DNA of 4,691 nt, taken from the IMG/VR virus record IMGVR_UViG_2534682252_000031, one strand, 5' to 3'. Each line of letters begins with the position of its first letter. Position 1 is the first letter of the stretch. A program made the position numbers and the translations under genes. This DNA comes from a virus. Its lineage: Duplodnaviria; Heunggongvirae; Uroviricota; Caudoviricetes. Below are positions 3,759 through 4,681 of this stretch, in pieces. Below the pieces are notes generated by a model. It saw nothing but the letters and a program-made list of their open reading frames with translations. It did not search any database and was not told the DNA's origin.

Positions 3759-4325
3759 TCAAAAAGCAATAACTTTTTTCTCTATACCAAAAGCCATAAC
3801 CATTGGTTTGTACAAAATAAATTCTGCCACCTTTAGCCAATGCTCAATGCGTCTTTCACAGGTTCTTAAACTCCATTCCGGATGTGCATCATTCAGCAAT
3901 TCAGCCATTTTGCGCTTAGTCATCCCCCGCCCCACATAACGCTGACTCAGAACATTGAGCAGCCCGGGATAACCTGCCAGTACTTCACCAATAACCCTAT
4001 CGATTATTAACGCCTCTGAATCGGTACAATGTGCCAGCCAGCTTTTTTGATTGCCGTTGATCATATCCCGCAAAAAAGCCTCAAGTTCAGGTTTGTCCAG
4101 ACCCGCTTTTTTCATCCTCCGGAGCGCCTCGTTAATTGCCGTTTTTGTCAGCTTTTTAGAGGTCAGTAATTGGTTGAACATATTTCCCGTCTTACCGTCG
4201 CCAATATACGACCAACGCCCCCACATACGCAGTTTCCCCTGGATCCAGACACTTTCCAGCGTTTTCAGGCGTAAATGCTCACCGCTTTTGCCTGTAATTT
4301 CCGGGTATATCATATTTATGCTCAC
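3759..4325 (-). CDS. Putative late-gene regulator / Q-like antiterminator (assignment by position), 188 aa
   Basis: Lies immediately downstream of rusA and upstream of a strong terminator and phage tRNAs, the position Q occupies in lambdoid phages. The GTG start at 4325-4323 overlaps the original rusA-frame TGA (GTGA); an alternative ATG is at 4313. The C-terminal GMTKRKMAELLNDAHPEWSLRTCERRIEHWL looks HTH-like. I do not recognise the sequence family with certainty. Confidence 0.5.
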   Translation of the reverse strand: MSINMIYPEITGKSGEHLRLKTLESVWIQGKLRMWGRWSYIGDGKTGNMFNQLLTSKKLTKTAINEALRRMKKAGLDKPELEAFLRDMINGNQKSWLAHCTDSEALIIDRVIGEVLAGYPGLLNVLSQRYVGRGMTKRKMAELLNDAHPEWSLRTCERRIEHWLKVAEFILYKPMVMAFGIEKKVIAF

Positions 4326-4375
4326 TCACTTTCAATTTTGTAAATCTTCACGCCCAGCCGCCCACCAGAAACGAG

Positions 4376-4681
4376 CTAGCCGCGCACAATATTGATTTCA
4401 TCAAACTGCTCGTCGTCTATGAGAAGTCCGGCATGCGTCAGCGCATCCAGTGGTGCTTTCAGGATATTGTCCAGGTCACGACGGCGCTTATCCGGTGGCT
4501 CTGCAATAATCTTTATCGCCAGCCTTCCGGACAGGTTTAATTTCAGCCGCTGCTGGCGAACAATAAGTGCCACATCCCGGCGATAACGCTCACCGGCTTT
4601 TGATACAAAATATGTGCTGCCACGACGTCGCCAGTAGGTGTTCACCGTCGGCGGGTAAGGCAAAACAAACTCTATACGCAT
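4376..4681 (-). CDS. rusA: RusA-family Holliday-junction resolvase, truncated at 101 aa by an in-frame TAG
   Basis: ATG at 4681 with GAGG 7 nt upstream. The translation aligns to recalled E. coli RusA (LPYPPTVNTYWRRRG...DKRRRDLDNILKAPLDALTHAGLLIDDEQ, catalytic Asp cluster present). After the TAG at 4378-4376 the same frame stays open for 17 codons (LVSGGRLGVKIYKIESE), resembling the RusA C-terminus, and ends at TGA 4324-4322. Confidence 0.85.
   Translation of the reverse strand: MRIEFVLPYPPTVNTYWRRRGSTYFVSKAGERYRRDVALIVRQQRLKLNLSGRLAIKIIAEPPDKRRRDLDNILKAPLDALTHAGLLIDDEQFDEINIVRG

Follow-up and report, generated by a model that had tools for sequence, protein, structure and literature searches.

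The closest described relatives of the gene under study are the RusA resolvases of Escherichia coli K-12 (prophage DLP12; structures 1Q8R, 2H8C, and 2H8E) and of phage 82, with which it shares both the family PF05866 and the conserved catalytic Asp, Asn, and Lys residues. The RusA monomer is described as a four-stranded mixed sheet plus two helices, while the dimer interface is formed between the sheets (PMC1636454). Dimerisation is needed for the nuclease active sites, and mutagenesis identified D70, D72, K76, and D91 (E. coli numbering) as critical residues (reviewed in PMC10956419). In K-12, rusA is silent until the insertion of an IS element upstream activates its expression (PMC10956419).

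The genomic setting is comparable as well. Like K-12 rusA, the gene analyzed here belongs to the nin region of its lambdoid prophage and directly precedes a Q gene. Furthermore, the lambdoid prophages of E. coli O157 Sakai were found to be mostly multiply defective, carrying frameshift mutations, deletions, and IS insertions (Asadulghani et al., 2009, PMC2669165). We here describe a rusA gene with an in-frame amber codon within a window of 4,691 nt, i.e., the whole stretch of DNA that was analyzed.

Results

The rusA gene and the gene that follows it are both encoded on the minus strand of the window, where the relevant stretch comprises these features:

4379..4681, minus strand: rusA coding sequence up to the amber codon, 101 codons (ORF list and translation; Pfam RusA, PF05866)
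4376..4378, minus strand: amber codon TAG, formerly CAG (Gln102); in 442 nt, the O111:H8 copy (locus L003) differs only here
4322..4375, minus strand: orphaned rusA 3' end made up of 17 codons (LVSGGRLGVKIYKIESE) and the former TGA stop (translation; identical to the intact copy)
4314..4321, minus strand: 8-nt spacer GCATAAAT, separating the original TGA of rusA from the probable Q-like start codon (sequence)
3759..4313, minus strand: DUF1133 / Q-like gene, 184 codons from ATG 4313 (Pfam DUF1133; RefSeq WP_000640035.1)

Based on the ORF list and its translation, rusA extends from ATG 4681 to TAG 4378-4376 and comprises 101 codons. If positions 4681-4322 are translated in one frame, the 17 codons of the orphaned 3' end follow the amber codon and the frame closes at TGA 4324-4322, precisely as a first-pass annotation of this DNA had described it. 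The product of the truncated gene counts 101 aa compared to 119 aa of the intact form, which amounts to a loss of 18 residues. Against Pfam RusA (PF05866, cut-off 22.8 bits) the 101-aa product scores 58.1 bits and covers model positions 1-109 of 124, while a 119-aa protein repaired with Q at the stop scores 59.9 bits and covers positions 1-123. The repaired protein was also aligned by phmmer with E. coli RusA (PDB 1Q8R) over residues 5-116 (E = 1.6e-22), and in this alignment GGRLGVKIY of the tail stands opposite GGRLELTIT of 1Q8R. The resemblance of the tail to the RusA C-terminus, which the first-pass annotation had put forward, is borne out by this alignment, by the wider Pfam coverage and by the intact O111:H8 copy with its identical tail. 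With all 17 codons identical to those of that copy, the likeness is far beyond chance. RefSeq nevertheless lists the 101-aa product as WP_001217444.1, an ordinary RusA family CDS with no pseudogene flag, and it carries a normal name in UniRef and NCBI too.

Comparison with intact prophage copies, a check that had been proposed with the initial observation, locates the change at a single base. The O111:H8 copy, in which rusA is annotated with 119 aa, differs from window positions 4250-4691 only once in 442 nt, at position 4378. Here the window carries A on the plus strand and intact copies carry G, and the coding strand consequently reads TAG instead of CAG (Gln102). At codon 102, CAG was found in O111:H8, in O103:H2 and in the O157:H7 strain PV15-279. 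This pattern points to one C-to-T transition on the coding strand, with CAG (Gln102) as the ancestral codon. In the 54 nt after TAG there are zero further changes compared to the CAG copy, which fits a recent event, while continued constraint would fit too.

Many E. coli O157:H7 chromosomes match window positions 1500-4691 with 100% identity. The distribution of both alleles was determined with a probe of 89 nt centred on codon 102, for which a single mismatch brings the identity below 99%. The TAG probe matched exactly in about 260 complete E. coli genomes, which come from independent laboratories in countries that include Turkey, Australia, the UK, Japan, the USA, and Korea, and all of the 11 exact matches sampled were O157:H7-type. 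Exact matches of the CAG probe were obtained in 124 genomes, O103:H2 12009 and O157:H7 PV15-279 among them. On the protein level, the exact 101-aa product is present on 999 public contigs and the exact 119-aa product on at least 1000, both within the same 90% cluster. Strain PV15-279 (locus L009, 8990-9349) harbors the intact CAG gene of 119 aa in the same module, and its DUF1133 and AraC-like proteins are identical. The TAG allele appears, from this distribution, to be inherited; it is present in most O157:H7 genomes and occurs in only a part of that lineage.

These counts also bear on the possibility of a sequencing or assembly error at 4376-4378 in a gene that is really intact, an alternative which the first-pass annotation had raised. 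Such an error is a reasonable default where one base in one read-out creates the stop, while we found no evidence in support of it. Since the stop recurs in independent assemblies, i.e., in exact form in the approximately 260 complete genomes and as the exact protein product on the 999 contigs, it is not a sequencing error. This explanation was rejected and can be regarded as practically excluded.

The alignment of RusA homologues, likewise suggested beforehand as a check, bears out the truncation. Position 119 is reached in 106 of 120 cluster representatives, none of the 120 ends at position 101, and the short representatives are contig-edge partials or frameshift variants. A natural short form of RusA that ends at codon 101 was consequently rejected. 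Position 102 is occupied by Q, L, V or K, with Q in the majority (62/120). The isolated phages Evi, mEp460, and 689R5 encode RusA proteins of 118-124 aa; these and a RusA paralogue of O157 carry Q or L at position 102, and GGRLG(V/I)KI is kept in all of them. In the homologue alignment, the missing tail includes three near-invariant residues (G106, G107, and R108) and one that is invariant (I113). The residues D69, D71, N72, K75, and D90, which correspond to D70, D72, N73, K76, and D91 of E. coli RusA, are all kept in the product of the window; they are invariant in 39 homologues and lie without exception upstream of the stop.

The homologues are of relevance as well for a scenario in which full-length RusA is still synthesized, either by amber suppression, on which expression might depend according to the first-pass annotation, or by programmed read-through of UAG. 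The 17 downstream codons are open and unchanged, and glnV (supE-type) amber suppressors insert Gln, which is the ancestral residue. However, no suppressor tRNA was found in the window, whose only two tRNAs have the anticodons TCT and CAT, not CTA, and the annotated 18-kb prophage stretch of O157:H7 strain TR01 contains only those two. An Rfam scan of the window yielded only the frameshift pseudoknot of an IS element and the two tRNAs, with none of them near the rusA stop, and the 94 nt of RNA from the stop onward fold no more stably than shuffled sequence (z = +0.71). Within the window there is accordingly neither a suppressor tRNA nor a stimulatory RNA next to the stop. Nor is the stop conserved as would be typical of recoding: it is absent from the copies of O111:H8, O103:H2, and O157:H7 PV15-279, the near-identical ones reading CAG, as well as from all phage copies, and no homologue representative ends there. 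With these tRNAs and a stop confined to one lineage, dependence on amber suppression finds no support, and read-through of either kind is highly improbable.

The structural consequences of the truncation were assessed with an AlphaFold2 model of a full-length relative of 96% identity (mean pLDDT 80.7, pTM 0.76), which superimposes on 1Q8R with a TM score of 0.85. In this model, strands comprise residues 2-7, 17-20, 23-26, 54-60, 93-100, and 109-115, while helices comprise residues 28-43 and 71-83. The product encoded in the window ends at residue 101 and lacks the strand 109-115 of the RusA fold. A stop at codon 102 would remove the loop 101-108 together with the whole last strand, which is predicted to be one of the four in the sheet that makes up the RusA core and the dimer interface. 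RusA acts as a dimer, and with one strand missing from the sheet of the dimer interface, the 101-aa protein would most likely be destabilised or devoid of activity. As a counterpoint, every known catalytic residue is retained in it.

One might thus speculate that the 101-aa protein still works as a resolvase or works differently, for example as a shorter active form or with a dominant-negative effect on the intact RusA paralogues of co-resident prophages. This idea is based on the position of the essential D70, D72, K76, and D91 (E. coli numbering), which all precede the stop (PMC10956419), and on the retention of the allele in most O157:H7 genomes. However, the deleted segment is strongly conserved and provides one of only four strands of the sheet, the sheet forms the dimer interface (PMC1636454), and the absence of any representative with the same end point among the 120 speaks against such a short form as well. 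We consider a working 101-aa resolvase quite unlikely.

Besides the protein itself, the stop affects the junction with the downstream gene. The codon GTG 4325-4323 overlaps TGA 4324-4322 and opens an ORF of 188 codons, which is four codons more than from ATG 4313. The GTGA overlap noted in the first-pass annotation does exist in the sequence, while translation probably does not initiate at GTG 4325. The RefSeq CDS WP_000640035.1, which is annotated in the CAG-allele strain PV15-279 too, equals window positions 3759-4313 with an ATG start; the Pfam DUF1133 match (349 bits) covers residues 5-180 of the GTG ORF; and pairing with the 16S rRNA 3' end reaches -4.7 kcal/mol for ATG 4313 compared to -0.9 for GTG 4325. 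These three lines of evidence disfavour GTG 4325, and the Q-like gene most likely starts at ATG 4313, so that the intact layout is most likely TGA, 8 nt, ATG. A weak Shine-Dalgarno-like GAGTGAG is located just upstream of the 8-nt spacer and overlaps the end of rusA. Beside DUF1133, the protein matches Phage_antitermQ with 33.1 bits (cut-off 26), and therefore the label "Q-like" seems fair.

In the annotations of the phages Evi and 689R5, the CDSs of rusA and Q share 4 nt, and the corresponding overlap is 11 nt long for the O157 paralogue. Because of the 4-nt overlaps in both phages, a tight and coupled arrangement of rusA and Q appears to be typical of the group. In contrast, the TAG allele terminates 62 nt upstream of ATG 4313, where the intact allele terminates 8 nt upstream. 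Ribosomes that end at this greater distance could somewhat lower translational coupling; thus reduced coupling to the Q-like gene is possible, while nothing indicates that it is important. Occlusion of initiation by an RNA structure in the interval from the stop to the Q-like start was considered and rejected, since the fold is no better than those of shuffled sequences, and the predicted fold leaves the Shine-Dalgarno region and ATG 4313 unpaired.

Whether such an effect would matter to the prophage can be judged from its condition in finished genomes. TR01, a strain with the TAG allele, has a frameshift in the portal gene. Partial genes for YdfR and the major capsid protein lie side by side there, and the annotation shows neither a lysozyme nor a terminase gene in between. 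In PV15-279, which carries the CAG allele, lysis genes are present, and IS1203 and a partial integrase gene are found where TR01 has the repressor, cro and replication genes. The prophage is defective with either rusA allele. Because the TAG and CAG copies both carry larger lesions, the stop is neither necessary nor sufficient for crypticity.

This condition has to be weighed against the idea, contained in the first-pass annotation, that the stop acts as a polar lesion which helps to keep the prophage cryptic. In an extended form of this idea, uncoupling or Rho termination would lower late antitermination, possibly under selection. The distance of 62 nt to the next start is consistent with it, given that the rusA stop of intact copies lies 8 nt from that start or overlaps it, and so is the only moderate Shine-Dalgarno pairing of ATG 4313. 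However, ATG 4313 does have a Shine-Dalgarno pairing of its own, which is unpaired in the predicted fold together with the start codon, and 62 untranslated nt are short for Rho loading. Moreover, the TAG strain has much larger defects and the CAG copy of PV15-279 is defective too. While the C-terminal truncation by a point nonsense mutation stands, with CAG in near-identical copies, its proposed role in keeping the prophage cryptic is weakened by the start's own Shine-Dalgarno pairing and by the larger lesions found with either allele. A polar effect of this kind is, in our view, unlikely.

Further downstream on the minus strand, the window contains:

2488-3201, minus strand: AraC-like helix-turn-helix gene, 237 aa (WP_000301797.1 in TR01), between the Q-like gene and the tRNAs
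2384-2459 and 2207-2283, minus strand: tRNAs (ARAGORN; Rfam)
1606-2109, minus strand: TerB-family gene (mechanical ORF from GTG 2109, 167 aa; the RefSeq CDS is shorter and equals 1606-2037)
1503-1609, minus strand: DUF3927-family small gene, truncated by an IS element (intact in O157:H7 TR01, where the CDS equals window 1442-1609)
1050-1166, minus strand: ALIL pseudoknot in the overlap of IS orfA and orfB (Rfam RF01497, 118 bits)

By its position and type, the AraC-like gene is a candidate for a PsrA/PsrB-type prophage regulator. Regulators of this type act on GAD acid resistance and type III secretion in O157:H7 (PMC10877973). The first tRNA (2384-2459) is assigned as Met with anticodon CAT by ARAGORN and as tRNA-Ile by RefSeq; a lysidine-modified Ile tRNA, of the kind that lambdoid EHEC prophages carry along with tRNA-Arg (TCT), would fit. 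The sRNAs PasA and PasC, which were reported near RusA and TerB, were considered and discarded, as they are sited between the esterase and holin genes and thus outside the window.

The left end of the window is of composite nature. Positions 1-190 match the plasmid pO157 under its espP annotation with 99.5% identity and are not chromosomal. They are followed at about 191-1502 by an IS3-family (IS629/IS1203-like) element with 26-nt inverted repeats. The ALIL pseudoknot is the signal by which IS3-family transposases usually undergo programmed -1 frameshifting. On pO157, the espP flank also runs into an IS3-family element, which has the orientation seen in the window and an identical left junction, but this IS copy is only 95.5% identical overall. 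From position 1503 the window continues inside the prophage DUF3927 gene. The join of pO157, IS element and prophage was not found in any complete E. coli genome of the collection searched, and the left end represents either a contig mis-join through the multi-copy IS element or a real IS-mediated rearrangement. The join does not affect the rusA finding, as the stop is located 2.8 kb from it, within sequence that finished chromosomes match identically. As for the surroundings in other genomes, the CAG rusA module of PV15-279 adjoins rspB/rspA/ynfA.

Discussion

Taken together, we interpret the stop in rusA as a lineage-fixed nonsense allele of a cryptic lambdoid prophage in E. coli O157:H7 that reflects ordinary gene decay, and we assign a probability of roughly 80% to this reading. 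A single C-to-T change converted codon 102 from CAG (Gln) to TAG, and translation ends 18 residues early. The TR01 chromosome contains elsewhere a 100%-identical copy of the intact 123-aa rusA paralogue, which is accompanied by its own Q gene. Apart from RusA, the host has RuvABC, and genes of the nin region such as rusA are silent in a repressed lysogen. Because the prophage is already defective, because at least one intact rusA paralogue resides in the same genome, and given RuvABC and the silence of the nin genes, the loss of this rusA copy is expected to be neutral, and the mutation would simply be carried along by descent.

Selection instead of descent could account for the near-fixation of TAG in O157:H7 as well. 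Two potential scenarios could be envisioned for a TAG allele that is not neutral: either the 101-aa fragment, with its active-site residues retained, interferes with the intact RusA paralogues of co-resident prophages, or the stop measurably lowers the amount of the Q-like antiterminator and was selected for this in O157:H7. In the first case recombination between prophages would be altered, and in the second, lower synthesis of the antiterminator would make a prophage that carries effector and regulator genes quieter. We regard a non-neutral TAG allele as very unlikely. Under the reading as a decayed, lineage-fixed allele, the finding contributes one further point lesion to the defects already listed for the cryptic prophages of O157:H7, and it matters little beyond that.

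In practical terms, the TAG/CAG site could serve as a simple lineage marker within O157:H7. Furthermore, the presence of rusA has been used as a predictive feature (PMC12711010). The scoring of rusA presence comes with a caveat in this respect, as there are several copies per O157:H7 genome, one of which is truncated.

Regarding previous descriptions, no discussion of this particular stop was found in the literature searched, while other O157 papers name rusA in passing. The main text of the study on Sakai prophages (PMC2669165) contains none of the terms "rusA," "nonsense," "stop codon" or "amber." In kind, however, the stop is already known, as point defects in O157 prophages are well described there (PMC2669165).

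Among the described systems, the intact allele of this gene is represented by WP_001217447.1, the 119-aa RusA of O111:H8, O103:H2, and PV15-279, which differs from the rusA product of the window at residue 102 only (CAG vs. TAG). Its neighbors are those of the window as well, namely DUF968, DUF1133, the AraC-like regulator, tRNA-Ile and tRNA-Arg, and TerB. The relation to K-12 RusA is a different one: the latter is full-length with 120 aa and merely silent (PMC10956419), whereas the gene analyzed here is cut at codon 102 and its product would lack the last strand. As for the prophage as a whole, the rusA stop represents one more lesion of the sort described for the lambdoid prophages of O157 Sakai (PMC2669165).
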